The translations under genes and the position numbers were made by a program. Of a DNA stretch of 64,000 bases, positions 1,640 through 51,571 are shown in pieces; positions within the stretch are counted from its first letter, which is position 1; every line of letters begins with the position of its first letter. The stretch is from an uncultured Rikenellaceae bacterium (GTDB taxonomy: Bacteria > Bacteroidota > Bacteroidia > Bacteroidales > VadinHA17). Location of the stretch: assembly GCA_964522415.1 (NCBI GenBank), contig CAZFVQ010000010.1:7857-71856 (forward strand). The letters are read 5' to 3'. Under the pieces are notes generated by a model. That model was given only the letters and a program-made list of their open reading frames with translations, ran no database searches and was not told the origin of the DNA.

Positions 1640-1661
1640 TTTTTAAATTATTTATAGCGTA

Positions 1662-2588
1662 TTACTTTTTTGAAAAGAGCTGATCCATATCAAGCAGTCT
1701 GACATCTTCCCTGAATGCATTGAAACACTCATCAGTCATTCCCCGGACAGGCGGCCTGAATTTGCCGAAATCGAATCCGGCAAGTTTCATGTAGGCTTTT
1801 CCGGTGACCATGCCTCCGTATTTATCAAGGAGGTAAATCATATCAATCGACTTTTGCTGCAACTCCCTTGCTTTTTTTATGTCGCCTTCATTAAATGCCT
1901 TAATAAGAGCGTTATACAAAGGTGCTGCATAATTATATGTACTTCCTACAAATCCCCGGCATCCAAGGGCAAGGGCTGCAAGCATGCATTCGTCCCTGCC
2001 ATAAAGCATGTCATAGATTCCGCCGCCGAAATTTATGCACGACATGAAATCCATCAGATCTTCGTCGGTATATTTCAATCCGGCAAAATTGGGAAGCATG
2101 TTTGTTATTTTCTTCAGGAATTCTAACATTGGCATTTTTACCCCGGTAAGAACCGGTATGTGATAAAAATATACCGGCATTTCCGGTACTGATTCACCCG
2201 TCAGTGCAACAAATTCCGCAAGGGCCCCGGGGTCAGGTGGTTTGAAATAATACGGGGCCACCACTGCAATTGCCGACAGTCCGGTTTCTTTGGAAAATAC
2301 TGCATTTTCCATACATTCCCGGTAGGATGTTCCACCAACCATATTGATAACTCTAACCCTCCCGTCACTCTTAAGGCACTGTGCCCACTTTTCTGCCTGA
2401 AGATATTTTTCTTTTTGAGTAAGTGAAGGGCCTTCACCCGTTGAGCCGTTGATAAATGCACCGGCAACACCATTTTCGGCAAGAAAATCATAATATTCCG
2501 GTATCAGTTCATCAAACAGATTTCCCTTACTGTCCATCGGTGTGAAGGGAGCAGCCACAAGGCCTTCAAATTTCTGGAATTTCAGCAT
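1662..2588 (-). CDS. nanA: N-acetylneuraminate lyase (DHDPS/NAL class I aldolase family)
   Basis: 308-aa ORF with a GSTGEG motif (INGSTGEGPSL) and the Schiff-base lysine context FAGLKYTDED. It sits between the sialidase and the AGE epimerase. Confidence 0.85.
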   Translation of the reverse strand: MLKFQKFEGLVAAPFTPMDSKGNLFDELIPEYYDFLAENGVAGAFINGSTGEGPSLTQKEKYLQAEKWAQCLKSDGRVRVINMVGGTSYRECMENAVFSKETGLSAIAVVAPYYFKPPDPGALAEFVALTGESVPEMPVYFYHIPVLTGVKMPMLEFLKKITNMLPNFAGLKYTDEDLMDFMSCINFGGGIYDMLYGRDECMLAALALGCRGFVGSTYNYAAPLYNALIKAFNEGDIKKARELQQKSIDMIYLLDKYGGMVTGKAYMKLAGFDFGKFRPPVRGMTDECFNAFREDVRLLDMDQLFSKK

Positions 2589-2675
2589 AATTAATAATTA
2601 TAACAGTCTATTTCGGTTTAAAATTCAAGAGTGGTAATTCATTGCAATTTAGTCATGCGGAATCCGGATATACTT

Positions 2676-4391: not shown

Positions 4392-4510
4392 AATATTACT
4401 ATGCTTAAAAGATAGAACAAACTCACCAATAAATATACTAATTTTATGTATTTTTAAAAATTGCATAAGCTCCTGTCAGACACGGGAAGCAATTTTCAAA
4501 CATTAGGGTT

Positions 4511-4577
4511 TTCCCGGCAAACCGGGGCAAGTCCCCGATAAATCGGGGCAAGTTATCCGATCTTTAAAATTAAAATA
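4511..4577 (+). repeat. Tandem 21-nt CCCG(G)-N4-(C)CGGG hairpin units (2.5 copies) plus a conserved AAAATTAAAATA tail; copy 1 of a dispersed intergenic element
   Basis: The units are ttcccggcaaaccggggcaag / tccccgataaatcggggcaag / ttatccgatc-tttaaaattaaaata. The element lies in the divergent sialidase / GH92 promoter region and is homologous to 34746-34837. Confidence 0.65.
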
Positions 4578-4584
4578 TATTCTG

Positions 4585-6948: not shown

Positions 6949-7045
6949 AACGGAATATTAACACTCACTGCAAAATAACACGGATTCAGGAAAATAATTT
7001 ACTCCAACCCGCTAATAACCAGAGAAATTCAAAATTATAAAAGAT

Positions 7046-8215
7046 ATGCATTTCAGCAGACGTAAATTCCTAAGAAAATCCCTCACCTCAGCTGCCGGAC
7101 TGGCGGCAATAAATGTATTTCCTGAAGATATGCCATTTGGAAATCTCCACAAAACCAGTTATCCTGAAGAAATAATACTCAGGCCGGCAACAGGAACGAA
7201 TCCCAAAGAATCGATCAGATTCTCCGTTATAGGATTAAATCATGACCATATTTACGGGATGGCAGGTGCAATTATTAACGGAGGCGGAAAACTGGTTTCA
7301 GTTTATGCCCGGGAACCCGAATTGCTCAAACCATTTACAAAAAGATTTCCCGGTGTCAGAATAGCGGAAAGCGAGAAAGAAATACTTGAAGATCCTTCAG
7401 TTCAACTGGTTGCCAGCGCATCCATTCCTGCCGACCGGGCCCCGCTGGGGATACGTGTAATGAAGTCAGGCAAAGACTTCATGGCCGACAAACCCGGAAT
7501 TGTAACACTTAATCAGCTTGATGAGGTGAGGAAAGTGCAAAAGAGCAGCGGCCGCATATATTCCATCATGTACAGTGAACGTCTGGGAAATCCCGCCTCG
7601 GTACAGGCGGGCAAGCTGATAGAGGCGGGAGCTATCGGCCAGGTGGTTCAGACCATAGGTCTCGGACCGCACAGAATGAGGCCCGCTTCCCGTCCCGAAT
7701 GGTTTTTTGATCCGGGAAAGGCAGGCGGCATTCTATGTGACATCGGTTCCCACCAGTGCGACCAGTTCCTGTTTTATACAGGTTCAAAACAGGCGGAAGT
7801 CAGTTTTGCGCAGACCGGGAATTTTGCCAATGGAAAATATCCCTTATTTCAGGATTTTGGCGATATGAGCGTCAGAAGTCCGCATGCAAGCGGATACATC
7901 CGCATCGACTGGTTCACACCCGACGGGCTGAATACATGGGGAGACGGCAGGACCTTTATACTGGGAACAGAAGGATATCTAGAAATGAGAAAATATACCG
8001 ATATTGCCGGCCGTGAAGGAGGGAATCATCTTTTTCTTGTAAATAACAAAGAAACAAAATATTACAACTGCTCTGAAGTATATATGCCCTACGGGGAACA
8101 GCTTGTCAACGATGTTGTCAACCGTACCGAAACAGCAATGACACAGGACCATTGCTTTCTTGCTTCCGAACTGGCCATCAGGGCCCAGAATATGGCTTTC
8201 AGAATGACGGTATGA
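7046..8215 (+). CDS. Gfo/Idh/MocA-family NAD(P)-dependent oxidoreductase with twin-arginine signal
   Basis: The leader MHFSRRKFLRKSLTSAAGLAAI matches S-R-R-x-F-L-K. The N-terminal Rossmann segment is RFSVIGLNHDHIYG. Size is 389 aa. Confidence 0.8.
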   Translation: MHFSRRKFLRKSLTSAAGLAAINVFPEDMPFGNLHKTSYPEEIILRPATGTNPKESIRFSVIGLNHDHIYGMAGAIINGGGKLVSVYAREPELLKPFTKRFPGVRIAESEKEILEDPSVQLVASASIPADRAPLGIRVMKSGKDFMADKPGIVTLNQLDEVRKVQKSSGRIYSIMYSERLGNPASVQAGKLIEAGAIGQVVQTIGLGPHRMRPASRPEWFFDPGKAGGILCDIGSHQCDQFLFYTGSKQAEVSFAQTGNFANGKYPLFQDFGDMSVRSPHASGYIRIDWFTPDGLNTWGDGRTFILGTEGYLEMRKYTDIAGREGGNHLFLVNNKETKYYNCSEVYMPYGEQLVNDVVNRTETAMTQDHCFLASELAIRAQNMAFRMTV

Positions 8216-14826: not shown

Positions 14827-15777
14827 ATGAATTATAAAAAAATAATACTGGGACTCACGCTAGCAGTTTTCGCACTCATAGTGATTCTGGAAACCGTGTA
14901 CATGATTACCGAAACCGAACAGGTTGTCATAACACAGTTCGGGAAACCCGTAGGGGATGCAAAAGTGACCCCTGGCCTCAATCTAAAAATACCTTTTATC
15001 CAGAGAGTCAATTATTTTGAAAAAAGATTTATGGAGTGGGATGGCGATGCCAACCAGGTGCCGACAAAAGACAAGAAATTCATTTATGTGGATACCTATG
15101 CACGATGGCAGATAACCGATCCCCTGCAATTCTTCAAGCGTCTGACCGACGAAAGGGGCGCCCAATCCAGGCTGGCCGATATTCTCGACGGTGAAACACG
15201 TGACTTTATTGCAAATCACGATCTGGAAGAAGTGGTCAGATCAGTAAACAGAACACCTGTTCCGTCCGGTTCCATAGGTGAGGAAGTGGGGGATACACTG
15301 TCAGATATCAATGAAGGGCGCCTCCGGATACAGGAAAGGATACTTGAATCATCCAATGAGAAAGCCGGCGACCTTGGGATCATAATCCTGGATGTGAGAA
15401 TAAAAAGATTGAATTATGTTACTGAAGTCCAGACCCAGGTTTATGAACGAATGAAAAGCGAAAGATACAGGATTGCTGAAAAATTCCGGTCAGAAGGCCT
15501 GGGGGAAGCCTCAAAAATAAACGGAGAAAAGGAAAGGGATCTGAAAACCATTCAATCGGAAGCATATCGCAAAGCCGAGGAAATCAGAGGTGAAGCTGAT
15601 GCAAGGGCAACTGCCGTATATGCCGGGGCATATAATCAGTCGGCAGCTTCGAGAAACCTGTACAGCTTTATGAAATCTATGGAAACATTCGAAAAAACGT
15701 TTGATACCACAACCACAATCATAATCTCAACGAGAAGTGAATTATACAAATACCTTATAAATATCAGCCAACATTGA
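14827..15777 (+). CDS. hflC: SPFH/band-7 protein, FtsH protease modulator HflC
   Basis: I placed the start at ATG 14827 (MNYKKIILGLTLAVFALIVIL, a TM segment), 14 nt after the hflK stop. The SPFH core is ITETEQVVITQFGKPVG. The ORF-track start at 14758 would overlap hflK. Confidence 0.8.
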   Translation: MNYKKIILGLTLAVFALIVILETVYMITETEQVVITQFGKPVGDAKVTPGLNLKIPFIQRVNYFEKRFMEWDGDANQVPTKDKKFIYVDTYARWQITDPLQFFKRLTDERGAQSRLADILDGETRDFIANHDLEEVVRSVNRTPVPSGSIGEEVGDTLSDINEGRLRIQERILESSNEKAGDLGIIILDVRIKRLNYVTEVQTQVYERMKSERYRIAEKFRSEGLGEASKINGEKERDLKTIQSEAYRKAEEIRGEADARATAVYAGAYNQSAASRNLYSFMKSMETFEKTFDTTTTIIISTRSELYKYLINISQH

Positions 15778-15837
15778 AATATTACTGATATAATTACTAA
15801 TTTACGAGTCGATTTTTAACTAAAAAATGAGAATAAA

Positions 15838-17100
15838 ATGAAAATGAAATTACAAAAACTGTTGATCCTGTTTATCAGTCTAACGATCAGTGGATTAGCA
15901 ATAGGGCAGACCTATAATATCGTTATCAAGGGCGGACATGTCATTGACCCTAAAAATAATATCAACGCCGTAATGGATGTTGCGGTAAAAGACGGCAAGA
16001 TAGCAATGGTTGCCAAAAACATCGATGCCAGGGAAGGAAGACAGGTAGTTGATGCAAAGGGAATGTATGTTACACCCGGTCTCATCGACATGCACGTTCA
16101 TGTTTATCATGGCACAATACTCGATCATCAGTATTGCAACGGTCCCAATTCTGTGGTGCCGGACGGATTTACCTTCCGTTCCGGTGTTACAACGGTTGTA
16201 GATGCAGGCTGTGCCGGATGGAGATCTTTTCCTGAATTCAAGAGAAACATAATTGACAGATCCCAGACACGTGTCCTGGCCCTGCTGAATATTGTGGGAG
16301 ATGGTATGAGAGGCGGTCCCGCTGAACAGAATCTGAAGGATATGGAACCGGTAAGAACGGGTGAATATGCAAAAAAGCATTCTGAGGATATTGTCGGAAT
16401 AAAGCTTGCACATTATACCGGATATGAATGGGAACCCACTGACAAAACAGTTGAAGCTGGAAGAATAGCCGATATGCCTGTGATGATCGATTTCGGCGGT
16501 GCTGAACCTCCCCTTCCCATTGAAGAACTGTTCATGAAACATCTTCGCCCGGGCGACATTTTCACACATTGCTTCGCCCAGCTGGGCAGCGGAAGGGAAT
16601 ATGTTGTCGATCCGGATGCGGGCAAGGTGAAACCCTTCGTATGGGATGCCGTCAAGAGAGGCATAATATTTGATGTTGGCTACGGAGGAATCAGTTTTGC
16701 CTATTCACAAGGAATACCCGCTATCAAAAGCGGCCTCTATCCCCACGTGATAAGTACTGATCTCCATACAGGAAGCATGAATGCAGCAATGAAAGATCTG
16801 GTTACAACAATGTCAAAATTCCTTGCCATGGGAATGGACCTGCAGAGTGTGATCAAGGCAACCACTTCCGAACCTGCAAGAGTGATCAAGCGCGAGGAGC
16901 TCGGTAATCTTTCAGTGGGAAGCGATGCTGATGTTACAATCCTGAACCTCAGAAAGGGCAAGTTCGGACTATTTGATTATACCGGCTATAAGCTTGAAAG
17001 TGATCAAAAGCTTGAATGCGAAATGACGATCAGAGGCGGCAGAATAGTATACGACCTCAACGGCATAGCCAATCCGGTTATACTGACAGGCAGGAGATAA
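15838..17100 (+). CDS. Exported amidohydrolase-superfamily metallohydrolase (deacylase/dihydroorotase-like), paralog 1 of 3
   Basis: Sec signal MKMKLQKLLILFISLTISGLAIGQ; HxH motif PGLIDMHVHVY; putative carbamylated-Lys strand GIKLAHY; Asp motif ISTDLH. Confidence 0.8.
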   Translation: MKMKLQKLLILFISLTISGLAIGQTYNIVIKGGHVIDPKNNINAVMDVAVKDGKIAMVAKNIDAREGRQVVDAKGMYVTPGLIDMHVHVYHGTILDHQYCNGPNSVVPDGFTFRSGVTTVVDAGCAGWRSFPEFKRNIIDRSQTRVLALLNIVGDGMRGGPAEQNLKDMEPVRTGEYAKKHSEDIVGIKLAHYTGYEWEPTDKTVEAGRIADMPVMIDFGGAEPPLPIEELFMKHLRPGDIFTHCFAQLGSGREYVVDPDAGKVKPFVWDAVKRGIIFDVGYGGISFAYSQGIPAIKSGLYPHVISTDLHTGSMNAAMKDLVTTMSKFLAMGMDLQSVIKATTSEPARVIKREELGNLSVGSDADVTILNLRKGKFGLFDYTGYKLESDQKLECEMTIRGGRIVYDLNGIANPVILTGRR

Positions 17101-17266
17101 TATATTGAATCAGCAGTATCACAAATTATCATCTGGCAGGAATCAAATACATATTATTATTCACATACTATTAATTAAAATTAGAAGTTAGCAGGCGTCA
17201 ATCATAAATAATTAAACACAATCAATATTTACAAATCATTAATCACAAATCATTAAACTAAAAAAC

Positions 17267-17731
17267 ATGAAAACTGAAAGAAGATCTGCACTGAAGACAA
17301 TGTTTGCATCTGTTCTGGGTTTAGCCGGAGCAGGAGTGGTGGCAAAAGCTGCAACAGGCATAACAAATGAGAAAGAAGCGGATAATATCACCAGTTTCCA
17401 GAGAGCCCCCATGTTCTCAGGTCACACCAAATATGGCAATCTCATATTCATAGCCGGCAAAGGTGCACATGTCGAGCCTTTTACAATCAAAAACCATACT
17501 GAAATTGTTTTGAAGGAACTGGAAGAGGAACTCATCAAAGCCGGTTCTTCAATGGAGAAAGTCCTTAAGGTAAATGTATATCTTGATGATATAAAAGATT
17601 TCCAGGGAATGAATGAAGTGTATGCAGGACGTTTCGGAAGCAAGCCCCCGGTACGTACAACCGTGGCAGTGGCCAAGGGTGGTGTTCCCGGAAGCTCACT
17701 CGTTGAAATGGATTGCATCGCTTACATTTAA
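17267..17731 (+). CDS. RidA/YjgF/UK114-family protein with twin-arginine-type signal peptide
   Basis: The leader is MKTERRSALKTMFASVLGLAGAGVVAKA. The RidA core is IFIAGKG..., KVNVYLDD..F..MNEVY, PPVRTTVAV (the Arg corresponding to the RidA catalytic Arg is present), ...VEMDCIAYI. Confidence 0.8.
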   Translation: MKTERRSALKTMFASVLGLAGAGVVAKAATGITNEKEADNITSFQRAPMFSGHTKYGNLIFIAGKGAHVEPFTIKNHTEIVLKELEEELIKAGSSMEKVLKVNVYLDDIKDFQGMNEVYAGRFGSKPPVRTTVAVAKGGVPGSSLVEMDCIAYI

Positions 17732-17745
17732 TAATTTAAGCTGAA

Positions 17746-18954
17746 ATGAAACGCAGAGATGTTATCAAGGGATTAACAATTCTGCCGGTAGCCGGAGCGG
17801 CAATGGGAAGTACCATTTCATTGGTATCTTCCTGTGCCTCACCGGTCAAACGAGATCTTTTACGCGATCTGGGACTCAGGACATTCATTAATGCAGCCGG
17901 CACTTATACTTTCATGACCGGTTCATTGCTGCCGGATGAAGTAATGGAGGCAATGGTTGCTGCATCAAAGGAATTTGTCCTTCTGGATGACGTACAGGAT
18001 AAGGTCGGAGAAAGAATTGCTGAAATATGTCATGCCGGGGCTGCAACTGTAACAGCCGGCTGCTGGTCAGCCATGGTACTCGGGACTGCAGGAGTCATCA
18101 CCGGGAATGATCAGGCAAAGATCGGACAACTCCCCAATCTCGAGGGGCTGAAATCTGAGGTCATCACACAGGTGAGTCACAACACAGGTTATGTACATGC
18201 ACTGAAAAACACTGGAGTAAGCATTATAGCCGTGGAAACTGTTGAGGAACTGGAAAAGGCAATAAACGAAAAAACTGCCATGCTCTGGTTCCTTAATTAT
18301 ACCGCTCCTCTCGGAAAAATACAGGACAGGGAATGGGTGGAACTGGGGAAAAAGCACAATATACCCACAATGATAGATATAGCTGCAGATGTTCCTCCCG
18401 TTGAAAATCTGTGGAAGTATAACGACATGGGATTCGACCTGGTTTGCATCTCCGGGGGAAAAGGTCTCAGAGGACCACAAAGCGCAGGTATCCTCATGGG
18501 AAGGAAGGATCTTGTTGAGGCTGCAAGGCTTAATGCCCCGCCCCGCGGAGGCAATATCGGCAGAGGCATGAAGGTAAACAAGGAAGAAGTTGTGGGGATG
18601 TATGCTGCAATAGAAAGATATGTCAGTCTCGATCATGACAGGGAATGGAAAATATGGGAAGACAGGATTGCACATATTGAAAATACGGCAAAAAAGATAG
18701 CCGGAGTAAAAACAAGCGTGACCGTTCCTCCTATAGCCAATCACACTCCCACACTGAATATCGCATGGGATCCCGGCGAGATAAAAATCAGCCGCGAAGA
18801 GTTCCAGGAAAGACTGCGTCAGGGAAATCCATCCATTGAAGTAGTTGCCGGCAACGGAAACAGCATTAATATCACCGCATTCATGATGGAACCCGGACAG
18901 GAAATAATTGTTGCTTCCCGCATTGCAGAAGAACTGACAAAAGCTTCCGTCTGA
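17746..18954 (+). CDS. SelA/DgaE-like fold-type-I PLP enzyme with twin-arginine signal, short paralog
   Basis: The leader is MKRRDVIKGLTILPVAGAAMG. The motif DLVCISGGKGLRGPQSAGILMGRKDL matches the SelA-family PLP-lysine motif (S-G-x-K-x-L-x-G-P-Q-x-G). Confidence 0.7.
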   Translation: MKRRDVIKGLTILPVAGAAMGSTISLVSSCASPVKRDLLRDLGLRTFINAAGTYTFMTGSLLPDEVMEAMVAASKEFVLLDDVQDKVGERIAEICHAGAATVTAGCWSAMVLGTAGVITGNDQAKIGQLPNLEGLKSEVITQVSHNTGYVHALKNTGVSIIAVETVEELEKAINEKTAMLWFLNYTAPLGKIQDREWVELGKKHNIPTMIDIAADVPPVENLWKYNDMGFDLVCISGGKGLRGPQSAGILMGRKDLVEAARLNAPPRGGNIGRGMKVNKEEVVGMYAAIERYVSLDHDREWKIWEDRIAHIENTAKKIAGVKTSVTVPPIANHTPTLNIAWDPGEIKISREEFQERLRQGNPSIEVVAGNGNSINITAFMMEPGQEIIVASRIAEELTKASV

Positions 18955-19016
18955 TTCTTCTGAACCATTTACCCGGATCTCCTTCCGGAAAATAACAGGA
19001 AAGAAACAATAAATAT

Positions 19017-19066
19017 AAAAAAGCTTCTGCCTTTCCCCTTAACCGGGTTCAGACAGAAGCTTTTAA
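19017..19066. terminator. Possible bidirectional terminator between convergent operons
   Basis: Stem aagcttctg (19021-19029) pairs with cagaagctt (19054-19062) around a 24-nt loop. An A-run lies upstream and TTTT downstream. The large loop and short U-tracts make it weak. Confidence 0.4.
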
Positions 19067-19080
19067 ATTTCCTTTCCGCA

Positions 19081-20685
19081 TCAAGTATAAATAACCATTT
19101 CACGTTCGGCATCCCAGCCCATTCCCTGAACATACATAGTGTACATTCCGGGCTGTGAAAAACCGTCCCACACCACTTCATGCTTCCCGGGCTCGAGACC
19201 ATCAGCCTTCAGGCGCCAGACAACATCCCCGAAACGGTTCTTGACATCTACATACACATCGCTTTCCTGAGGAACGTTTACTTCCATAACAATACCATCC
19301 TTGTTGTCCGTTCCGAGAGCTTTGATTGAAGGTTTACTGTCATAAGCCATCGTACCCGTTTTCCATGCCGAATAATCAAAAGGCTCATCAACCAGATGAT
19401 AGCGGTCTTCATCATGGCCTTCCCAGTTCCTTCTCAGATAAAGAGTAACCAGGGGAGTACGCTTCAGGGTATCAAGATTCACCTTCGTGGCTTTCCCGTT
19501 CTCCCACAAATACACCGGTATGTCAAAGGGATCAAGAACATCCGATACCCCGCGTTCTATCCCTATGTGAAACAGTCCGAAATTGCCCGGTTCATGACCT
19601 GTAAGCCAGTGTGAAATAATATCAACCCTGAAAGCATCCTTACCGAAAATCACGCTGTTAGTCATGAATTTCCCTGGCTTTCCGTCATGCGGACCGCCAT
19701 TAAAGCCATCGCCATCCTGGGCATAAACACCTTCAACAATATTTATTCCGGTTGGTATCACACTGTAGGCATCAATCATTCTCTGTACCCATTGCTCCAT
19801 CCAGAAGCCACCTCCGTAAGGGGGCCTGTCCTGCTTGCTCCTCCACCTGGGCATTCCCTGTGCCTCATGTATCTTCTGAAGCTCGGCAATTTTTTCCATA
19901 TAATCGGGCTGGAAGAATTTGTGGTAACGCTTGTCATATGTCTTGAAAATATCATAGTTACCTCCGCAAAACTGGTGAAATCTTCTTGCCGTAGTGCCCT
20001 GCAGATTCTTTATTGCACCTGTTACTCCCATCTGGTGAGTTTTAAGCTTGGCAAGGTTTATCAGGAAGGTACCGTCTGCCGACATGGGCGCCATGAAACC
20101 GACTTCCCTGAATACCACTCCCCCGTTCACTTCCCGGAAAATTATTTCACCTTCGGGAAGATCCCAGAAATCCTTTGAAGTCAGATCCTTAAGATCAAAG
20201 TTATTTCTCCGTGCCATGTCATAATAACCCAGCGGCTCCCACTGATGTGTGCAGGCACATTCCCTGAGATAGAACTTTTCCGGACCCAGTGTCTTTACAC
20301 CTCTGAGAAATCCTTCAATATAATTAAGATCTGTCGTTATTCCCAGACTGGACAGCGGATCGTTCGGATCCGGCCTCCCTGTACATGTCCAGTTGGGCTT
20401 GCATGTTATCGCTGTAGATAAGGGATATCCTCTCCCATCATTTGTTCTGACGAACATTTCCCCTGCCAGTTTGAATGCTGCATCATGAATAGCCTGACTG
20501 TCATCCGGTGCTCCGACCGAAGTCAGATTGATAAAAACAGCTTCCGGATGTTCCTTTATAAAAGGATGAAGGTCAAAACCATTTCCGCCCTGTAGTCCTG
20601 AACCGGCAAAAGCATCATAGGCAGGGTTAACAAGTCCCATCATTCCTGCTGCAGATGAGAGTTTTATAAAATCACGTCTTTTCAT
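19081..20685 (-). CDS. DUF362-domain protein with twin-arginine signal and C-terminal FlgD-Ig-like beta-sandwich
   Basis: The leader is MKRRDFIKLSSAAGMMG. DUF362-like motifs are ITCKPNW, INLAKLKTHQMGVTGAIKNLQG and IVEGVYAQDGDGFNGGP. The C-terminus GKHEVVWDGFSQPGMYTMYVQ resembles FlgD-Ig / T9SS-CTD-type domains. Confidence 0.65.
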   Translation of the reverse strand: MKRRDFIKLSSAAGMMGLVNPAYDAFAGSGLQGGNGFDLHPFIKEHPEAVFINLTSVGAPDDSQAIHDAAFKLAGEMFVRTNDGRGYPLSTAITCKPNWTCTGRPDPNDPLSSLGITTDLNYIEGFLRGVKTLGPEKFYLRECACTHQWEPLGYYDMARRNNFDLKDLTSKDFWDLPEGEIIFREVNGGVVFREVGFMAPMSADGTFLINLAKLKTHQMGVTGAIKNLQGTTARRFHQFCGGNYDIFKTYDKRYHKFFQPDYMEKIAELQKIHEAQGMPRWRSKQDRPPYGGGFWMEQWVQRMIDAYSVIPTGINIVEGVYAQDGDGFNGGPHDGKPGKFMTNSVIFGKDAFRVDIISHWLTGHEPGNFGLFHIGIERGVSDVLDPFDIPVYLWENGKATKVNLDTLKRTPLVTLYLRRNWEGHDEDRYHLVDEPFDYSAWKTGTMAYDSKPSIKALGTDNKDGIVMEVNVPQESDVYVDVKNRFGDVVWRLKADGLEPGKHEVVWDGFSQPGMYTMYVQGMGWDAEREMVIYT

Positions 20686-20777
20686 TTATTGATAATTAGA
20701 TTCAGTTTAAATAATTATTCTTTATTGTTAAACATTTAATTTCAGTATTTGTTTGGATCATCCGGTATGCCACCCGG

Positions 20778-22391
20778 TCAGGTTGCAAGAGGTTGACCTT
20801 TCGGATATTTTACCTGTCTGTGTGAAATCCGGTAATCGTTCTTTTTAGCAGTGAATGTTGCATTCAGATATTCTCCCAGGTGAATCTGTCCGGAAATGGT
20901 ATCTCCCGACAGCGTCCCGGAGAAAATATAGGGTACACTATCTGCAGTCAGCCTTCCGGTGCTGCTCAGCTTAACCTGATCACCTTCAATGGTACCGGCA
21001 ATTTCCCTGAACGAGAATTCAGTCCTGTGAGATCCCTGCAGCCAGTTTCCATCCTGTTCCAGTAAAAATGTATGACTGCCCTTACTGCTGAAGAACTGAA
21101 CATCCACTGCCCACCTTCCGCTTATGTCAGCAGCCGGGCGTACCATCTCCGCGGATTTGGAATATTTTTTCGACAGGAGTTCAAAGATCCGGTCTGCAAC
21201 AATCTTATCGTCACCCGGCTGCATCTGTCCTGAATTAACTCTCAGGGAGGAAATTCCGTCCTCGTCATTGATGCTACCGCGAAGGGCTATCCTGGGTTTG
21301 GTGTTTGCAAGGATTTCGGCAATATCGGGTCCCGTCACATTAAACCCCGCAGAATCCCATGAAATCATCAGAACAGGACTTCTGTTATTCAGATTGAGAG
21401 CTTCAGGTTCCCTTATTTCCGTTTTAATACCTTTTATCTTTAAAACGCGCCTGGAGACAGTGTCAAGGTAGCCCATCCAGGTCCGGTATTTTTCATCATG
21501 ATCCCGTTTAACCCAGGCTTCCACTGCCGCCAGCATTCCCATCATTTCCTCCTTGCCAACCTTATTATCCCTGCCTGTGCCATGATGAGGCGAACTTGCC
21601 TGCCAGGCAGACATGAGCAGATCTTTCCTGCCGAGAAGCAATCCGGCACCCTGGGGACCACACATTGCCTTTCCCCCGCTGTAAGCCACAATTGAAGCTC
21701 CTGCTTCAAGATGAACATTTGGTATGGTCAGGTCCTCTGCCGCAGCATCAACAAGGAAGGGAATATTCCCCGGCTTCGCCAGGGCAGCTATCTTGTCGAT
21801 GGCAAATCTGTTCCCGGGCAAAGTGTCATTACCTGTCATAACATATATCATTGCCGTACGGGAATTCAGGGATTTTTCCAGTTCTTCAAGACTGTCAACT
21901 GTAATAATTGTTACTCCGATATTTCGTATTGCATGATCATAGGCATTCCTGGAACTTCTGGGAATAATAACCTCGGTTTTGTCAAGACCTGTAAGATCGG
22001 GTATCCGGATCAGTTTTTCAGGATTGCCCCCTGAGACGCAGGCAGCCGTAACATGTTTCATTCCGGCAGCACAACCGGCAGAAATCATACCCCATTCAGC
22101 CCCGGTCAGTTCAGCCAGGCGTCTGCCTATCCCCATTGCCAGTTCATCCATCTGGACAAAATGGCGGGCTGCAAAACCAATTGTTTCAACAACTTCCGGC
22201 CGTTCAAGGGATCCGCTGATAATGGTGAATGTACCCATGCAATTTATAACCGGTTCCACTCCTATCGACTGGTAAATATTCGGACCCGGTTCAAGAGGCC
22301 CCTTCCCTTTTGACAAAGCTGATTCAAGAGGAAGAAAACTACCGGCTAAAGGCAGTATTGTCAGACTTTTGATAATATCTCTTCGTTTCAT
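20778..22391 (-). CDS. SelA/DgaE-like PLP enzyme with twin-arginine signal, long paralog carrying a ~135-aa C-terminal extension
   Basis: The leader is MKRRDIIKSLTILPLAGSF and the PLP motif is SIVAYSGGKAMCGPQGAGLLLGRKDL. The beta-rich tail starts around ...AADISGRWAVDVQFFSSKGSHTFLLEQDGNWLQG... Confidence 0.7.
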   Translation of the reverse strand: MKRRDIIKSLTILPLAGSFLPLESALSKGKGPLEPGPNIYQSIGVEPVINCMGTFTIISGSLERPEVVETIGFAARHFVQMDELAMGIGRRLAELTGAEWGMISAGCAAGMKHVTAACVSGGNPEKLIRIPDLTGLDKTEVIIPRSSRNAYDHAIRNIGVTIITVDSLEELEKSLNSRTAMIYVMTGNDTLPGNRFAIDKIAALAKPGNIPFLVDAAAEDLTIPNVHLEAGASIVAYSGGKAMCGPQGAGLLLGRKDLLMSAWQASSPHHGTGRDNKVGKEEMMGMLAAVEAWVKRDHDEKYRTWMGYLDTVSRRVLKIKGIKTEIREPEALNLNNRSPVLMISWDSAGFNVTGPDIAEILANTKPRIALRGSINDEDGISSLRVNSGQMQPGDDKIVADRIFELLSKKYSKSAEMVRPAADISGRWAVDVQFFSSKGSHTFLLEQDGNWLQGSHRTEFSFREIAGTIEGDQVKLSSTGRLTADSVPYIFSGTLSGDTISGQIHLGEYLNATFTAKKNDYRISHRQVKYPKGQPLAT

Positions 22392-22433
22392 GGTGTTTGG
22401 TTCAGTTAATATTTAGAGTTCCTGTAAGTCCTG

Positions 22434-23699
22434 TTAAAATTTGATTGTCTGGTTTTCAAGCCAGCTTCTGGCTGAAATTCCGTTCTGATCATATACCACT
22501 TTCCCTGAGCGGATAGTAAGCTCGGTTTCTATTCTGCGGTCTCCGTCAAGCCTGCATCCGGCTGCATCAATGAAGCCAAATTTCCCCTCTCTTATGCTGA
22601 AAACAGCTATATCGGCCACCGCCCCTTCACTTAAATGTCCCAGATCCTCTCTTTTCAGAGATTGAGCCGGATTCCAGGTGGCTCTGAAAATGATTTCTTC
22701 AAAACTCATACCAATATTAAGGTACTTCGACATAATATCGAGCATATTTTTCATTCCGGAATTCATGCTTATGCGGTGAAAATCGGTACCAAAGGAATCT
22801 GGCCACAGTCCCTGCCGGAATGCAGGTATGGCAATATTGAAATGAAACATGCCTCCTCCGTGACCCACGTCAAATTTTATCCCTGTCTTCCTTGCGTCAG
22901 CCACAAACGGCTTAATCCTCCCCTTTTCGTCAAGAAGGCATTCCCTGTCGGAAGCCACACAAAATGAATGTGTATAAATATCTCCTTCCTTCATCCTTGC
23001 AAGAATTCCTTCCAACGGAAGCAGTGGCAGATGACATTCTACAAGAAGAGGAACATCAGAAATCCTTGCTGCTTCGGCAGCTCTGTCAAAGGGGGTCCAC
23101 TCACTCCCCCTGAAATGGCCAATCTTGACACCAACAATTATCCCGGGATACTGTCCGATCACCAGTGAAGTCATGCGGGCATCCATATCATTTATATCCT
23201 CCTCATGGGGAAATCCCGTCATTCCCGATCCTGCAATATTCAAAAAGGCAAGCACCCTTGTCTGGGATCTGTCAATCACCTGCTGCTTGAACAGAGGAAA
23301 GCTTCTCCAGCCGGAAGTTCCGGCATCTGCAACAGTAGTGACACCTGATTTGAATGTAAAATCATCAGGAGAAACACTGGAAAAACCATTTGCAAATCCC
23401 GTTTCCGGGCCAACAAACACATGAGTGTGAATATCTATGAGTCCCGGAGTAACATATAATCCATTTAAATCAATAACCTTTCTTGCTTTTTCTGAAGAGA
23501 TGGACGGAGATACTTTTACGATCCTGCCATTGGAAACGGCAATATCCATGCGTCCGTTTATTTTGTTTTTCGCGTCAATCAGATGGCCGCCCCGGAGAAG
23601 AATATCAATCTCCTGTGCAAATACACTGCCCGAAGACAGTGTTGAGAACAGCAAAAATATACACAGCAGCCTGAAAACTTTCAGGATTGATTGCCGCAT
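22434..23699 (-). CDS. Exported amidohydrolase-superfamily metallohydrolase, paralog 2 of 3
   Basis: I placed the start at the Met giving the signal MRQSILKVFRLLCIFLLFSTLSSGSVFAQ (complement of 23697-23699). Motifs: PGLIDIHTHVF, GVKIGHF, GTDFH. The ORF-track start at 23756 would overlap the upstream paralog. Confidence 0.8.
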   Translation of the reverse strand: MRQSILKVFRLLCIFLLFSTLSSGSVFAQEIDILLRGGHLIDAKNKINGRMDIAVSNGRIVKVSPSISSEKARKVIDLNGLYVTPGLIDIHTHVFVGPETGFANGFSSVSPDDFTFKSGVTTVADAGTSGWRSFPLFKQQVIDRSQTRVLAFLNIAGSGMTGFPHEEDINDMDARMTSLVIGQYPGIIVGVKIGHFRGSEWTPFDRAAEAARISDVPLLVECHLPLLPLEGILARMKEGDIYTHSFCVASDRECLLDEKGRIKPFVADARKTGIKFDVGHGGGMFHFNIAIPAFRQGLWPDSFGTDFHRISMNSGMKNMLDIMSKYLNIGMSFEEIIFRATWNPAQSLKREDLGHLSEGAVADIAVFSIREGKFGFIDAAGCRLDGDRRIETELTIRSGKVVYDQNGISARSWLENQTIKF

Positions 23700-23740
23700 A
23701 TACCTGGCGTAAAATATTCCATCCATCCCTGATATTATTA

Positions 23741-25033
23741 TCACTTCTCGTTCCACATCGGCGCTCCTATACCATTAAGATCCCATACGATCCTGCCCGC
23801 GCGAATCGTGAGTTCTGCCTCAAGCTTCTTGTTTCCTTTCATCTTTGTGCCACGCACGTCCAGAAATCCGAAATCACCCGTATGAAGACTGAACACGGCC
23901 ACATCGGCATCCGCACCCGGACTGAGAGTACCAAGATCAGTTCTTTTGATGACTTTTGCAGGATTAAGGGTTGCTCGTCTGATTACATCCTCAAGCGGAA
24001 GTCCCATATTAAGAAATTTCGAAAGCAGGTTTGCCATATCCTTCATTCCGCTGTTCATGCTTCCGATATGAAGATCCGAACTGATCACGTCAGCAATGAA
24101 CCCCTGCTGTACAGAAGGTATTGCCTGCTTCCAGTGAAAAGCTCCCCCGCCATGACCCACATCGAAAATAATCCCTCTTTTCTGGGCTTCGAAAACAAAG
24201 GGTTTTACCCTTCCGTTTTCATCCACCGGCACCTCACGGTCCCAGGGTGCATTGGCATAGGTATGTGTCCAGATATCTCCCGGTCTGAGATGCTTCATAA
24301 ACAGTTCCTCAATGGAAAGAGGCGGATCATGTTCGCCCAGGTCAACCATTACCGGAACATCAGCCAGCCTCCCGGCTTCAACTGCCTGATCAACCTGCGT
24401 AAAATCCGGGCCCCAGTAATGAGCAGACTTGACACCAACAAGGATATCCGGGAACAGTCTTTTAATCATGTACGAAACCATCACCGGATTCATATCACTG
24501 ACATCCTGTTCTTCAAATCTGCCATACATACCCGTGCCGACAATATTGAGAAAAGCCAGGATTCTTGTCCGTGACCTGTCGATAGTCTGTTCCTTGAATT
24601 TCCTGAAATTCCTCCATCCGGCAGATCCTGCATCAACAACCGTAGTGACGCCTGCCCTGAAAGTGAATCCGTCCGGAGGCAGGGCATCCCAACCATCGGC
24701 AATATAAGACCCCGGCTCGGTTCCGTGAAAAGCATGAACATGCATGTCAATCAGGCCCGGGGTTACATACATGCCACTGGCATCAATAAGCTTGTTTACA
24801 TCCCTGGCGGGAATGTCGGGAGCCACTCGAAGTATTCTGCCTCCTGCTATGGCCACATCCATTTTCTTATCAATACCGTTGGCCGGATCTATAACATGAC
24901 CGCCTTTCAGCAGAATATCAATTGTCTGGCTATAAGACAAATCACTGCCGGCAAGAAAAAATGCAAACAAAAGCAGACAAGCTTTTGCCGGAAATGTCCG
25001 TGTTATGGTTTTTATTATCCTGTTCCTCATCAT
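23741..25033 (-). CDS. Exported amidohydrolase-superfamily metallohydrolase, paralog 3 of 3
   Basis: Signal ...ACLLLFAFFLAGSDLSYSQ. Motifs: PGLIDMHVHAF, GVKSAHY, ISSDLH. It is colinear with the other two paralogs. Confidence 0.8.
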   Translation of the reverse strand: MMRNRIIKTITRTFPAKACLLLFAFFLAGSDLSYSQTIDILLKGGHVIDPANGIDKKMDVAIAGGRILRVAPDIPARDVNKLIDASGMYVTPGLIDMHVHAFHGTEPGSYIADGWDALPPDGFTFRAGVTTVVDAGSAGWRNFRKFKEQTIDRSRTRILAFLNIVGTGMYGRFEEQDVSDMNPVMVSYMIKRLFPDILVGVKSAHYWGPDFTQVDQAVEAGRLADVPVMVDLGEHDPPLSIEELFMKHLRPGDIWTHTYANAPWDREVPVDENGRVKPFVFEAQKRGIIFDVGHGGGAFHWKQAIPSVQQGFIADVISSDLHIGSMNSGMKDMANLLSKFLNMGLPLEDVIRRATLNPAKVIKRTDLGTLSPGADADVAVFSLHTGDFGFLDVRGTKMKGNKKLEAELTIRAGRIVWDLNGIGAPMWNEK

Positions 25034-25095
25034 TTGCTGATACTTTAAACATTAAATTTCATAATAAAATCAATGCCTAAATATAGGGAATATGT

Positions 25096-25122
25096 TTCCA
25101 TAAATATTTTAATTTTATGGAA
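25096..25122. promoter_or_regulatory. Perfect 9-bp inverted repeat TTCCATAAA-N9-TTTATGGAA (candidate operator)
   Basis: Read directly. It lies in the 277-bp divergent region between amidohydrolase paralog 3 (start 25033, minus strand) and the TIM-barrel gene (start 25311, plus strand). Confidence 0.4.
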
Positions 25123-25310
25123 TTCCTGACCACAGATCACGCTAAAGATATTATATTTAAAATATATTTCAATCTGCTTAATTCATAAATATTGTTAAAA
25201 TATTGTAAACCTTTACTTTACCTTGCAGATTGTTTGCTTTCCGAAGCAGGCGGGAAGGCCCTGTATTAAGTAACAAAATACTATATATAAGAACCTTAAC
25301 AGAAATCAAT

Positions 25311-26186
25311 ATGAACAGATTAACAAGGCGTCAGTTTATTGGCAAAAGTGCCCTGGGAATCGGATCAGCAGTAATTGCATCACATTTCCCTTCGGACCTC
25401 AAAGCTTTTACCCCTCCCAGGCATGTAAGGTATCCACTGGGTTTTCAGGTATGGACAATCCGTGAACAAGTCATAAGGGATTTTGCGGGCACCATGAAGA
25501 TGATGGCCGGAATCGGATATAAAAGTGTTGAAATGTGCTCTCCTCCCGGATATGAGCTTTCAGGTTTCGGTCCCCTGATGAAAATGACCGCCAGGGAAAT
25601 GAAGCAGATAGTAAATGATAACGGGATGCTGCTGGAAAGCACCCATTACACAATGAACGAACTCCGGAACAATCTTGATGAACGAATCAGTTTTGCAGCC
25701 GGGTCAGGACAGAAGCAGATGATACTTTCCAGTTTTGGCTTGCCGGGAAATGCTACAATGAGCGACTGGATGAAAGCTGCTGATGAACTGAACAAAATCG
25801 GAGAAAGGACAAAAAGGGCCGGTATCCAGACCGGCTTTCACAATCATCATACAGAATTCGGGGAAATCGATAATGTACTTATTTATGATGCCCTGCTCAG
25901 GCAGTTTGACCCTGAACTTGTAAAGATGCAGTTCCAGGTTGCCGTAATCGACATCGGATACAAGGCTGCAGACTATTTCAACAAGTATCCCGGAAGGTTT
26001 ATTTCTGCACATCTGGCAGACTATTCGGTACTTGACCGGAAGAATGTTGCCCTAGGCAAAGGTATTGTTGACTGGAAAGAGTTTTTTGCTTCAGCCGGCA
26101 GGGGTGGTGTGAAAAACATCTTCGTTGAAATGGATCAGGACACATTCAGTGACAGTGCCCTGTTTATCAAGAACCTGCAATATTAA
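25311..26186 (+). CDS. Sugar phosphate isomerase/epimerase-like (xylose-isomerase-type TIM barrel) protein with twin-arginine signal
   Basis: I placed the start at ATG 25311, giving MNRLTRRQFIGKSALGIGSAVIASHF. TIM-barrel family features include GYKSVEM, GIQTGFHNHHTEF and IFVEMD. Confidence 0.75.
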   Translation: MNRLTRRQFIGKSALGIGSAVIASHFPSDLKAFTPPRHVRYPLGFQVWTIREQVIRDFAGTMKMMAGIGYKSVEMCSPPGYELSGFGPLMKMTAREMKQIVNDNGMLLESTHYTMNELRNNLDERISFAAGSGQKQMILSSFGLPGNATMSDWMKAADELNKIGERTKRAGIQTGFHNHHTEFGEIDNVLIYDALLRQFDPELVKMQFQVAVIDIGYKAADYFNKYPGRFISAHLADYSVLDRKNVALGKGIVDWKEFFASAGRGGVKNIFVEMDQDTFSDSALFIKNLQY

Positions 26187-26212
26187 AATCAGTTGCATCC
26201 ACCAACGGTACG

Positions 26213-28147
26213 CTAAGGTTCTTCCGCAACCATATTATTGTCAATAAGCCTGCTGTTGTAGCTTTGGATTATTGCCTTCAGCTTGTCTTCCATAAATGAT
26301 AAAAGCTCCGCTTCTTTTTCAAGCAGATTCACCTCCAGGAATCTGTCGGTTTTAAAGTTATATAATCCTACTGGCCTGTAATCAGTCATTAAAAGGATAT
26401 GGTCTCTCATGTAGAGGTGATAAATGCTGCCATTCGTATTGAACGCGAAAGATTCATCCGAATCATCAAAGAGATCATTACCGAAAGCAATGAACTCCTC
26501 GTCATAATTGAGATAATTAAGTACAGTGGGCATAATATCAATCTGCTGGGCTATCCTGTTCCTGATTCCCTGCAGATCACTCCCGGGCCTGTACAGGATC
26601 AACGGAACAGAATATAATCCATAGCTGTTCTGGTATTCCCTGTGAATCGACTCATTTGTATGATCAGCAGTAATAATGAAAAGTGTGTTTTGAAAAAATT
26701 CTTCTTCCGAAATACCCTTGAAGAATCCTCTCAATGCAAAGTCGGTGTATCCCACAACTTCAGCAATGGGGACAGGCCCTTTGGGAAACTTCCCTTTATA
26801 TTTCTCCGGAACCTTGAACGGATGATGTGAGGAAAGTGAAAAAACCGAGGCCAGAAATGGCCGGGGAAATTCCTTCATCCTTTCCCCGAAAAACCTGAAA
26901 AATGGTTCATCCCATATCCCCCACATACCATCGGTATCTCCCGGATAGGGATAACTTTCATAACTCACATAATCCTGGAAACCTGAAATCCGGGAAAAGG
27001 AATCAAATCCCATAGATCCGCTCAGTGCACCGTGGAAAAATGTGGTGTAATAGCCTTTTTTCCCTAGATGTGCAGCCAGACCTTCAATCCGGTTATTTGA
27101 ATAGTGAGATATGGCATAAGGCGTTTCCAGAGAGGGTATTGAAGCCAGTATGGAAGGCATTGCATCGATCGACTTTTTGCCGTTTGCAAGAGACACATCA
27201 AAAGTCAGACTGACACTGATAAGGGAATCAAGAAAGGGAGTATAACCGGAATAAGTACCACCATCAAGATCTTTGTTCAATGCGCCGATATATTCACGGC
27301 CAAAACTTTCAAGAATGATTATTACCACATTTTCTTCCCTGAAACTCCCCTGATGTTTCGGGACGAAATGAGGATTATATAAATCACTTAATCTGTCGTC
27401 ATCAAAAAAAACCTTCCTGTCAAGGGGTTTCTTTCCCGATGTCCTGAATAGGCTGAACGGGGTGTTGAGTACAATCGCCACATTCGTGGGATTGTTTACA
27501 TATCGCGCTGCATTACTGTTTGATATAGGTCTGGTCGATTCGTTGAGACTGCCACGCGCTCCCCCAACTACCAGTCCGGCAAGCAGAGGTACAAGAAGAA
27601 CATTGATTATTGCATAGCTCAGCCTGTTGGATGGCCGGGGTTTTTCCACCTTAACCCTCCTGTACAGATAAACCATAAGGAACCAGATAAAAATACAGAA
27701 GAGTGTAACAGGCCAGTAATCAATCACGAATTTGAAAAACATTTTCACCACACCGGGTTCCCCTTCAAATGTCCGGAATACGTCAGAGGTTGCCCTCTTG
27801 AAAACAAAACGGTAATAAACAAAGTCTGCACTGTTGACTGCAAAAGCCAGTCCGTTGCTAAAAAAGAAAATAAAGCCTAATATTTTCTGATAAATTGCAT
27901 TATAACGGAAATCGAAAGGAAGCAGATTAAAAAATATAAATACCAGGTTTATATATACTGTTGCCGAGATATCGAAAACCAGTCCTCCTCTCATTACGGA
28001 TAAAAATTCCGCCACGCTTATCCCCGGAAACATATTATGATTGAAAATATAAAATCCTATCCTGCTTAGGGAAAAAAGAAAAAGTATTATTAAGATCCTG
28101 TAAATCAGAACAACAAATATGTTTTTAGAAAAAAACCAGTTCTTCAT
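26213..28147 (-). CDS. LTA-synthase-family / sulfatase-type (alkaline phosphatase superfamily) membrane protein
   Basis: 644 aa with about 5 N-terminal TM helices followed by a sulfatase-like domain (NVVIIILESFGREY..., ...ITADHTNE). Confidence 0.8.
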   Translation of the reverse strand: MKNWFFSKNIFVVLIYRILIILFLFSLSRIGFYIFNHNMFPGISVAEFLSVMRGGLVFDISATVYINLVFIFFNLLPFDFRYNAIYQKILGFIFFFSNGLAFAVNSADFVYYRFVFKRATSDVFRTFEGEPGVVKMFFKFVIDYWPVTLFCIFIWFLMVYLYRRVKVEKPRPSNRLSYAIINVLLVPLLAGLVVGGARGSLNESTRPISNSNAARYVNNPTNVAIVLNTPFSLFRTSGKKPLDRKVFFDDDRLSDLYNPHFVPKHQGSFREENVVIIILESFGREYIGALNKDLDGGTYSGYTPFLDSLISVSLTFDVSLANGKKSIDAMPSILASIPSLETPYAISHYSNNRIEGLAAHLGKKGYYTTFFHGALSGSMGFDSFSRISGFQDYVSYESYPYPGDTDGMWGIWDEPFFRFFGERMKEFPRPFLASVFSLSSHHPFKVPEKYKGKFPKGPVPIAEVVGYTDFALRGFFKGISEEEFFQNTLFIITADHTNESIHREYQNSYGLYSVPLILYRPGSDLQGIRNRIAQQIDIMPTVLNYLNYDEEFIAFGNDLFDDSDESFAFNTNGSIYHLYMRDHILLMTDYRPVGLYNFKTDRFLEVNLLEKEAELLSFMEDKLKAIIQSYNSRLIDNNMVAEEP

Positions 28148-34915: not shown

Positions 34916-35183
34916 ACTTTTCCTGTCCGGTCTTTTTGCTGTATAGCCAGGCATAATCGGTTCATGGACCGCTTAAACCGGCTGATCTCCCGGTACAATT
35001 TTCTCGTATCCGCTGGGAGAAAGCAGAATTTCAGGCCGGAAAACCTTGTTACTGAACCTGATGTCTGCCCCGGTAATGGCGAGTCGATATTATGGAATGT
35101 CAATATATATTGATAACTTCCTCCCGGCCGGAATATGAATTACTGTGGGAAATGATATTTTTAGAAACAAAAATTCCGATCCC

Positions 35184-51554: not shown

Positions 51555-51571
51555 AAAAAGAATTGTCGGAA

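Follow-up and report, generated by a model that had tools for sequence, protein, structure and literature searches.

The sequence of an N-deacetylase, a pyridoxal phosphate (PLP) enzyme and a RidA-family protein acting on an amino-sugar acid is so far known only inside the cell. In the Ong pathway for oxidised chitin of Pseudoalteromonas prydzensis, the substrate GlcNAc1A is processed by a deacetylase (OngB), a PLP-dependent deaminase (OngC), an essential RidA protein (OngD) and KdgK (PMC9537276), and the steps that follow transport are cytoplasmic. In Salmonella D-glucosaminate catabolism, DgaE carries out a phosphorylated version of this chemistry; its His162-His163 dyad is strictly conserved, and protonation of C3 by His163 prevents release of the enamine, which does occur in an H163A mutant (PMC9529869). 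We analysed a window of 64,000 nucleotides from an uncultured Rikenellaceae bacterium (contig CAZFVQ010000010.1, positions 7,857 to 71,856) that holds, at window positions 15838-26186, a cluster of eight genes combining amidohydrolases, DgaE-like PLP enzymes and a RidA protein, all with export leaders. This cluster is one form of a gene set, widely conserved in Bacteroidota, that appears to act on oxidised amino sugars outside the cytoplasm, removing the acyl group first and the amino group next.

The cluster was first described in a first-pass annotation made from the sequence alone, and its eight open reading frames (ORFs) are where that annotation placed them, in the same orientations. Pfam and NCBIfam profiles likewise return the same families: three amidohydrolases (AH1, AH2 and AH3), two SelA/DgaE-like enzymes (SelA1 and SelA2), a RidA protein, a DUF362 protein and a triosephosphate isomerase (TIM)-barrel protein. 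A plus-strand string, AH1-RidA-SelA1, converges with a minus-strand string, AH3-AH2-SelA2-DUF362, and the TIM-barrel gene is divergent. When we compared this arrangement with the Ong pathway, we found that both would combine N-deacetylation, PLP-dependent deamination to a 2-keto-3-deoxy acid and a RidA-family protein, which in the Ong case is genetically essential and is followed by a kinase and an aldolase. In contrast to the cytoplasmic Ong enzymes, the deacylase, PLP enzyme and RidA of the window all carry export leaders. The enzyme families also differ: the amidohydrolase OngB is of the D-aminoacylase type and the PLP enzyme OngC of fold type III, whereas the window encodes COG3964/PRK09237 amidohydrolases and fold-type I DgaE-like enzymes, and with the Ong families taken from PMC9537276 the RidA component alone is of the same family in both systems. 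The first-pass annotation had put the cluster forward as a candidate undescribed pathway; for the location and the enzyme families this stands, and for the chemistry the Ong pathway is a precedent (PMC9537276). In our literature search, no paper described an exported combination of DgaE-like enzyme, RidA and amidohydrolase, although most subscription journals lay outside that search and absence is not proof. What is new is the proposed extracytoplasmic location and the enzyme families used.

Our preferred reading, to which we give a probability of roughly 55%, is that periplasmic N-acetyl-hexosaminic acids would be converted to 2-keto-3-deoxy-hexonate, acetate and ammonia. The families, catalytic residues, leaders and gene linkage described below are observed, and from them we infer every reaction, substrate and location. 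In aerobic relatives, an amino-sugar glycan or its oxidised end would be taken up through SusC/D, oxidised at C1 by a pyrroloquinoline quinone (PQQ) dehydrogenase-cytochrome c and hydrolysed as the lactone, giving the aldonic acid in situ. The periplasmic amidohydrolase would free an N-acyl-2-amino-2-deoxy-aldonic acid (e.g. N-acetyl-glucosaminate or N-acetyl-galactosaminate) of its acyl group, and the DgaE-like PLP enzyme would eliminate the C3 hydroxyl by alpha,beta-elimination; because this enzyme lacks the proton-donor histidine of DgaE, the enamine/imine is probably released, and RidA would hydrolyse it to 2-keto-3-deoxy-hexonate and ammonia. The keto-deoxy acid would then be imported by a major facilitator superfamily (MFS) or SBF transporter and used by DgoK and an aldolase in the cytoplasm. 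In these terms the window would contain two copies of an exported catabolic module made up of a Sec-exported COG3964 amidohydrolase, a DgaE-like PLP enzyme exported by twin-arginine translocation (Tat) and a Tat-exported RidA. The window holds only the deacylation, PLP elimination and RidA steps, in two diverged copies, together with DUF362, and the presence of three diverged deacylases and two lyases suggests several related substrates.

We scanned one genome per GTDB species and found at least 600 pattern matches, of which at least 517 encode a relative. We kept 80 loci, spanning Bacteroidales, Marinilabiliales-type metagenome-assembled genomes (MAGs), Cytophagales, Chitinophagales, Sphingobacteriales, Flavobacteriales and Fodinibius, clustered all of their neighbouring ORFs and annotated the representatives. 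In 68 of the 80 loci, over several orders, a PLP gene has a co-directional amidohydrolase gene no more than 400 bp away (median gap 41 bp); RidA is nearby in 47 loci and a YjgF-like protein in 14. The functional link between amidohydrolase, PLP enzyme and RidA that had been proposed from the window alone is supported by these relatives; the clustering is far above chance, and the AH-SelA-RidA core is kept across at least four orders. The seven-gene order AH1-RidA-SelA1/DUF362-SelA2-AH2-AH3 itself recurs in other lineages with protein identities of 67-94%, and relatives add to it an SGL lactonase, a CocE/NonD hydrolase or a PorZ-like beta-propeller. The CocE/NonD (Peptidase_S15) hydrolase sits between two modules at three loci (L090, 11679-13457; L091, 11603-13402; L089, 13285-15087), and the PorZ-like beta-propeller, for which an NCBIfam search was uninformative, flanks these CocE/NonD-bearing clusters; both are absent from the window.

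The genes found beside the module may point to the rest of the proposed pathway. A PQQ glucose/sorbosone dehydrogenase (GSDH) fused to cytochrome c is present at 40 of the 80 loci, and the same neighbourhoods hold SusC (31 loci), SusD (23), extracytoplasmic function (ECF) sigma factors (26), FecR (25), CBM9 proteins (23), SGL lactonases (18), seven-bladed lactonases (9), RraA-like aldolases (12), SBF transporters (11), DUF362 (8), DgoK (7), 2-keto-3-deoxy-6-phosphogluconate (KDPG) aldolase (6), MFS transporters (5) and sulfatases (5). In Chitinophagia we found co-directional operons of the order ECF sigma-FecR-SusC-SusD-SelA-AH-DgoK-KDPG aldolase-MFS-SelA2 (L039, 2833-17139; L031, 152-13807; L029, 2431-16459). 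These tight operons contain no sugar-acid dehydratase and have no room for one, which leaves the PLP lyase as the sole candidate for making the keto-deoxy acid. DgoK is assigned by PF05035 (E = 2e-54) and, in the operons that contain it, points to the galacto series, i.e. to a substrate derived from N-acetylgalactosamine. The known counterpart of this arrangement is periplasmic aldose oxidation by a soluble PQQ-dependent GSDH and a gluconolactonase, joined to a De Ley-Doudoroff-type lower pathway (DgoK, DgoA). The relatives are built in the same way, with GSDH-cytochrome c fusions and lactonases as the exported part and DgoK and KDPG-type aldolase in the cytoplasm, together with an MFS transporter, except that the dehydratase of that route is replaced by the deacylase, PLP lyase and RidA; the window cluster, in contrast, lacks the genes for oxidation and for the lower pathway. 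At several loci (L025, L040, L048, L065, L072, L079 and others) we also saw RraA-like proteins (class II aldolase/decarboxylase) with Sec-type leaders, usually paired with an SBF transporter, and this pair may form a periplasmic cleavage branch.

Comparative evidence supports export of the cluster's products, which the first-pass annotation had claimed for all eight genes: the leaders are conserved in orthologues, while DgoK and KDPG aldolase go without them. In each window protein, the match to family profiles and to solved homologues starts no earlier than residue 25-50, which indicates that the leaders are true N-terminal additions. We applied the Tat model TIGR01409 (curated cut-off 16.7 bits) to the N-termini; the TIM-barrel protein (22.7 bits) and DUF362 (18.1) score above the cut-off, SelA1 (15.5) falls just below it, and SelA2 and RidA have no match. 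For the latter two, the Tat call is based on an RR-x-hydrophobic motif and on the conservation of that motif. In SelA1, MKRR is the first in-frame start, and the motif MKRR(D/E)xI(K/R)xL does not vary among aligned SelA1 homologues, the most distant of them at 67% identity, and holds in SelA2 too. Counted with a crude heuristic (RR motif plus h-region) in the orthologues from 80 species, Tat-like leaders occur on 112/116 PLP genes, 52/55 RidA genes and 8/9 DUF362 genes. Sec-like leaders occur on 104/119 amidohydrolases, 39/42 dehydrogenase-cytochrome c fusions, 14/18 SGL lactonases, 9/9 seven-bladed lactonases and 11/12 RraA-like proteins. The same operons provide leaderless controls, with a leader on 0/7 DgoK and 1/7 KDPG aldolase proteins, and this contrast is the best evidence that the upper part of the route would be periplasmic and the lower part cytoplasmic.

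SelA1 (17746-18954, plus strand; leader MKRRDVIKGLTILPVAGAAMG) and SelA2 (20778-22391, minus strand; leader MKRRDIIKSLTILPLAGS) are DgaE-like fold-type I PLP enzymes and putative amino-aldonate ammonia-lyases that are 39% identical to each other. Both match the DgaE-family model TIGR01437, at 157.8 and 151.3 bits respectively, far below its cut-off of 385.3, and they score 129 and 141 bits against NF047797, where 600 are required. True selenocysteine synthases were considered and rejected, as TIGR00474 (SelA; cut-off 267.9) gives 34.9 bits for SelA1 and 18.8 for SelA2 over the PLP core only, and both proteins have an export leader. The structure of DgaE, their closest characterised homologue (7lc0), aligns with SelA1 at E = 2e-28, with DgaE residue 5 opposite SelA1 residue 38. 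The two window enzymes share with DgaE the fold, the Schiff-base lysine in S-G-x-K and the aspartate to the pyridine nitrogen: K239 and D211 of SelA1 align with Lys213 (of SGAK) and Asp189, both are kept in every relative examined, and SelA2 has SGGK. The lysine motifs quoted at first pass, CISGGKGLRGPQSAG and AYSGGKAMCGPQGAG, are present in the translations, and the PLP-binding residues are intact by alignment with 7lc0 and with the relatives. Arg226, the alpha-carboxylate binder of DgaE (PMC9529869), corresponds to R253 of SelA1 and to R or K in relatives. The published numbering differs at one position, as PMC9529869 calls the catalytic lysine 'Lys-217' and the SGAK lysine of the 7lc0 chain is residue 213; His162/163 and Arg226 agree.

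The window enzymes differ from DgaE in that they carry a putative Tat leader, lack its phosphotransferase system (PTS) and DgaF neighbour in the window, and have no counterpart of the His162-His163 dyad. In the 7lc0 alignment the dyad falls on N184-Y185 of SelA1, and the loop at this site (FLNYTAP in SelA1, MTGNDTLP in SelA2) contains no histidine. Because H163A DgaE releases the enamine, a natural relative of DgaE without this histidine would plausibly need a RidA partner. Arg301, Arg332 and Arg346, which bind the 6-phosphate in DgaE (PMC9529869), align to Thr (T336), Gly, and Gly or Arg in a C-terminal domain whose alignment is of low confidence; this would fit an unphosphorylated periplasmic substrate. 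Column statistics for His and Asn over distant relatives were set aside as too alignment-dependent. The approximately 130-residue C-terminal extension of SelA2 (window 20778-21180) has no Pfam match, and the SelA2-type orthologues of Chitinophagia operons bear such an extension too; SelA2 orthologues adjoin DUF362 or, in Chitinophagia, come after DgoK-aldolase-MFS. The PLP family is large, with at least 8000 candidates at E ≤ 1e-10 among 90% clusters and 709 clusters at 50% identity at E ≤ 1e-30, the latter comprising leader-bearing forms and leaderless forms of approximately 375 residues. The best 120 relatives are at least 66% identical, and most of them carry the name 'selenocysteine synthase' or 'uncharacterized PLP enzyme'.

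The RidA protein (17267-17731, plus strand; leader MKTERRSALKTMFASVLGLAGAGVVAKAA), a putative imine/enamine deaminase, scores 67.6 bits against PF01042 (cut-off 27.3) and 65.3 bits against the narrower model TIGR00004, below the 106.25 set for it. Solved RidA proteins align to it from residue ~50, and it keeps the active-site PxR arginine and the C-terminal glutamate (PPVR opposite KPAR, and VEMD opposite IEIE, of the solved proteins).

AH1 (15838-17100, plus strand; leader MKMKLQKLLILFISLTISGLAIGQ), AH2 (22434-23726, minus strand; leader MRQSILKVFRLLCIFLLFSTLSSGSVFAQ) and AH3 (23741-25033, minus strand; leader ending in LAGSDLSYSQ) are members of the COG3964/PRK09237 deacetylase family and putative N-deacylases. 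All three exceed the curated cut-off of 371 bits for NF006689/PRK09237 ('amidohydrolase/deacetylase family metallohydrolase'), at 453.1, 408.8 and 434.3 bits. The motifs read at first pass (PGLIDMHVHVY, PGLIDIHTHVF, PGLIDMHVHAF, G(I/V)K..H(Y/F) and TD(L/F)H) are all in the translations, and the metal-ligand motifs (HxH, Lys, His, Asp) are kept in all three proteins, with HxH, GIK..HY and TDLH in AH1. These features are common to the EF_0837-type amidohydrolases of the family (PDB 2ogj, 2ics, 8wzy, 8je0), of which 2ogj, 8je0 and 2ics are the relatives of AH1 in the PDB. The window proteins add Sec-type leaders of 24-36 residues, and position 2 of NF006689 aligns to residue 25 of the AH1 ORF, 49 of AH2 and 37 of AH3. 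According to a TIGRFAMs remark, EF_0837-type amidohydrolases lie beside selA_rel (DgaE-family) genes in PTS operons, which would be a cytoplasmic form of the same pair. The three paralogues are 48-56% identical (AH2 to AH1 and AH3, 48-51%), and the order AH3-AH2-SelA2-DUF362, with AH3 as the first minus-strand gene, is conserved in relatives. The AH2 ORF spans 22434-23756 from a GTG; its start is most likely M11 (23726) or M20 (23699), and gene callers on identical metagenome contigs give 430 residues from M11.

The DUF362 protein (19081-20685, minus strand) has a Tat leader and a C-terminal Ig-like/FlgD-like beta-sandwich, and PF04015 matches its residues 96-357 at 66.1 bits (cut-off 24). Its subfamily has approximately 1045 homologues, and the best 120 are at least 65% identical, none of them with an informative name. 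Cysteines 95, 101, 143, 145 and 240 and many histidines show little or no variation, and the five conserved cysteines suggest a metal or cluster site. An AlphaFold model made with 116 sequences has a mean predicted local distance difference test (pLDDT) score of 86.3 and a predicted TM-score (pTM) of 0.88 (pLDDT 46.7 with 20 sequences). DUF362 has no match in the PDB by sequence or profile search, and Foldseek against the PDB gave no match to the catalytic domain at E ≤ 1e-3, matching only the C-terminal Ig-like sandwich. DUF362 and DUF2088, the lactate racemase (LarA) superfamily, share Pfam clan CL0471 (PMC11770544), although neither sequence nor Foldseek comparison matched the DUF362 catalytic domain to LarA. 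Fusions of DUF362 to CBM9 are reported from anaerobic lignocellulose enrichments (PMC5742341), a parallel to the stand-alone CBM9 genes that accompany the module in aerobes. DUF362 always occurs near SelA/AH modules and accompanies a dehydrogenase-cytochrome c gene in 0/8 loci, compared with 40/80 overall; this split follows taxonomy and is not independent evidence for substitution of one by the other. The host is an anaerobic Bacteroidales, as judged from a 94% match to a Bacteroidales MAG and from an [FeFe]-hydrogenase in the window, and the window carries an anaerobe variant of the gene set, without the dehydrogenase and with the DUF362 protein present instead. The large subunit of that hydrogenase lies beside a NuoF-like flavoprotein (49761-53350), a bifurcating-hydrogenase-type pair.

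Several points weigh against deamination of amino-sugar acids in the periplasm. The identity to DgaE, about 27%, is too low to read the reaction type from it, the C-terminal domain with the Arg cluster is aligned with low confidence, TIGR01409 misses two of the five Tat leaders (SelA2 and RidA), and the activity and location of the whole clade are read from sequence. The window cluster and its adjoining genes lack a dehydrogenase, lactonase, transporter, kinase and aldolase, so the sugar-acid reading is transferred from the relatives, and the source of an aldonic acid in an anaerobe is unexplained. The CocE/NonD peptidase-type hydrolase in three DUF362-type relatives hints at amino-acid or peptide substrates instead. 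The first-pass annotation had offered both N-acyl amino-sugar acids and O-substituted Ser/Thr; the PQQ dehydrogenase, the lactonases and the DgoK/aldolase/MFS genes without a dehydratase in relatives favour the former, and the latter is not favoured. An unlikely alternative on the amino-acid side is that D-amino acids, or amino acids with a beta substituent, are salvaged from peptides, peptidoglycan or glycopeptides. The amidohydrolases would then be dipeptidases or N-acyl-D-amino-acid deacylases, the PLP enzymes would act as D-Ser/D-Thr dehydratases or C-O/C-S beta-lyases, and RidA would quench 2-aminoacrylate. Besides the CocE/NonD hydrolase between modules, this salvage would agree with the absence of any sugar-oxidising gene from the window cluster, with the acceptance of D-Ser and D-Thr by the Ong deaminase (PMC9537276) and with dipeptidyl peptidase IV and M24 peptidases elsewhere in the window. 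However, these peptidases are 15-20 kb distant with unrelated genes between, the nearest characterised homologue works on an amino-sugar acid, and salvage leaves the PQQ dehydrogenase-cytochrome c, two lactonase families, CBM9, SusC/D and DgoK/KDPG aldolase/MFS unexplained.

The DgaE-like proteins could also catalyse transamination, racemisation or aldol cleavage on an exported substrate, with RidA serving the imine of another enzyme. We consider this quite improbable, even though the identity to DgaE is low, the scores are far under the family cut-offs, the His-His dyad is missing and RidA proteins also partner amino-acid dehydrogenases and oxidases (e.g. PA5083, among the PDB matches). Transamination in the periplasm would require a stoichiometric keto-acid or amino donor, where DgoK and aldolase occur in one operon without a dehydratase, some step must yield a 2-keto-3-deoxy acid, as elimination does, and tight linkage to RidA is typical of enamine-releasing eliminases (PMC9529869). 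That the eight exported-enzyme genes lie side by side by chance or lineage, with unrelated jobs, would account for the poorly conserved position of the TIM barrel, the lack of a known function for DUF362 and the lack of a regulator or transporter binding the genes together in the window, but conservation of the seven-gene order at 67-94% in independent lineages and of the AH-SelA-RidA core in at least four orders makes it very improbable. Least credible of all would be cytoplasmic proteins whose leaders are start-codon artefacts, or, as a variant, SelA-like proteins that are true selenocysteine synthases: TIGR01409 does fail on SelA2 and RidA, yet no in-frame start precedes MKRR, which homologues keep without change, over 90% of orthologues have the leader and cytoplasmic-type neighbours do not, leaderless relatives of approximately 375 residues align from residue ~38, and the variant has to contend with 35 bits from a SelA model whose cut-off is 268.

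Extending periplasmic deamination of amino-sugar acids to a wider scheme is tentative, and we regard that scheme as possible but not probable. In it, the whole oxidative breakdown of amino sugars would take place outside the cytoplasm, from SusC/D uptake through oxidation at C1, hydrolysis of the lactone and removal of the acyl group to PLP deamination, and only the keto-deoxy acid would enter the cell; the PLP ammonia-lyase and RidA would be the first characterised Tat-exported pair of their kind, and in anaerobes a Tat-exported DUF362 enzyme would replace the PQQ dehydrogenase step. If the proposed reactions are correct, they would constitute a third, largely periplasmic route of amino-sugar catabolism beside the phosphorylative NagA/NagB and the cytoplasmic Ong/Dga routes, common in Bacteroidota of soil, freshwater, marine and digester habitats, in which PLP elimination and RidA-type imine clean-up work outside the cytoplasm. 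They would also explain thousands of proteins mis-named 'selenocysteine synthase' or 'dihydroorotase', give a testable context to DUF362 and stand-alone CBM9 proteins, and bear on how nitrogen is set free from the debris of chitin, peptidoglycan and glycoproteins.

The last gene of the cluster encodes a xylose-isomerase-like TIM-barrel protein with a Tat leader (25311-26186, plus strand; PF01261, AP_endonuc_2, 35 bits, above its cut-off). Its ORF spans 25230-26186, and we corrected the start to M28 at 25311 (MNRLTRRQF), in agreement with gene callers on identical contigs. Among the loci searched, no more than three related ones, including L070 (91%) and L090 (67%), have its orthologue close to the cluster, so it is a doubtful, loosely linked member, and a place for it in the core is not supported. 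The cluster contains no transporter, regulator or SusC/D genes, as already noted at first pass, and a SusC/SusD pair is absent from its flanks as well, so that it does not qualify as a polysaccharide utilization locus. A promoter and terminator scan of 15600-26400 gave counts not above those of shuffled sequences, with a sigma-70 consensus that is unsuited to Bacteroidota, and defined no operon limits. On its upstream side the cluster is flanked by housekeeping genes for CorC, an M48 peptidase and HflK/HflC, and on its downstream side by those for an LTA-synthase-like sulfatase and an arginine decarboxylase.

The proposed tie to nearby sialidase, GH92, GH78, heparinase-like and peptidase genes is not supported, as these are 8-20 kb off, behind housekeeping genes; the sialidase/GH92 block was ruled out as a partner of the cluster, with hcp, CorC, the M48 peptidase and HflK/HflC intervening. 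On the other side, a 687-residue ORF (35145-37208, plus strand) that adjoins the GH78 rhamnosidase has no Pfam match above threshold and a faint GH42-like match (E = 1e-4). The sialidase/GH92 block is a sialic-acid/N-glycan block at window positions 455-8215, with a GlcNAc (N-acetylglucosamine) 2-epimerase-like protein, a NanA-like dihydrodipicolinate synthase family protein, a BNR sialidase, a GH92 enzyme and a Gfo/Idh/MocA oxidoreductase. This oxidoreductase (7046-8215, 8 kb upstream of the cluster) carries a Tat leader, MHFSRRKFLRKS, that scores 18.7 bits with TIGR01409, above the cut-off. A periplasmic oxidoreductase of the Gfo/Idh/MocA type could in principle oxidise sugars at C1, but nothing ties this one to the cluster.

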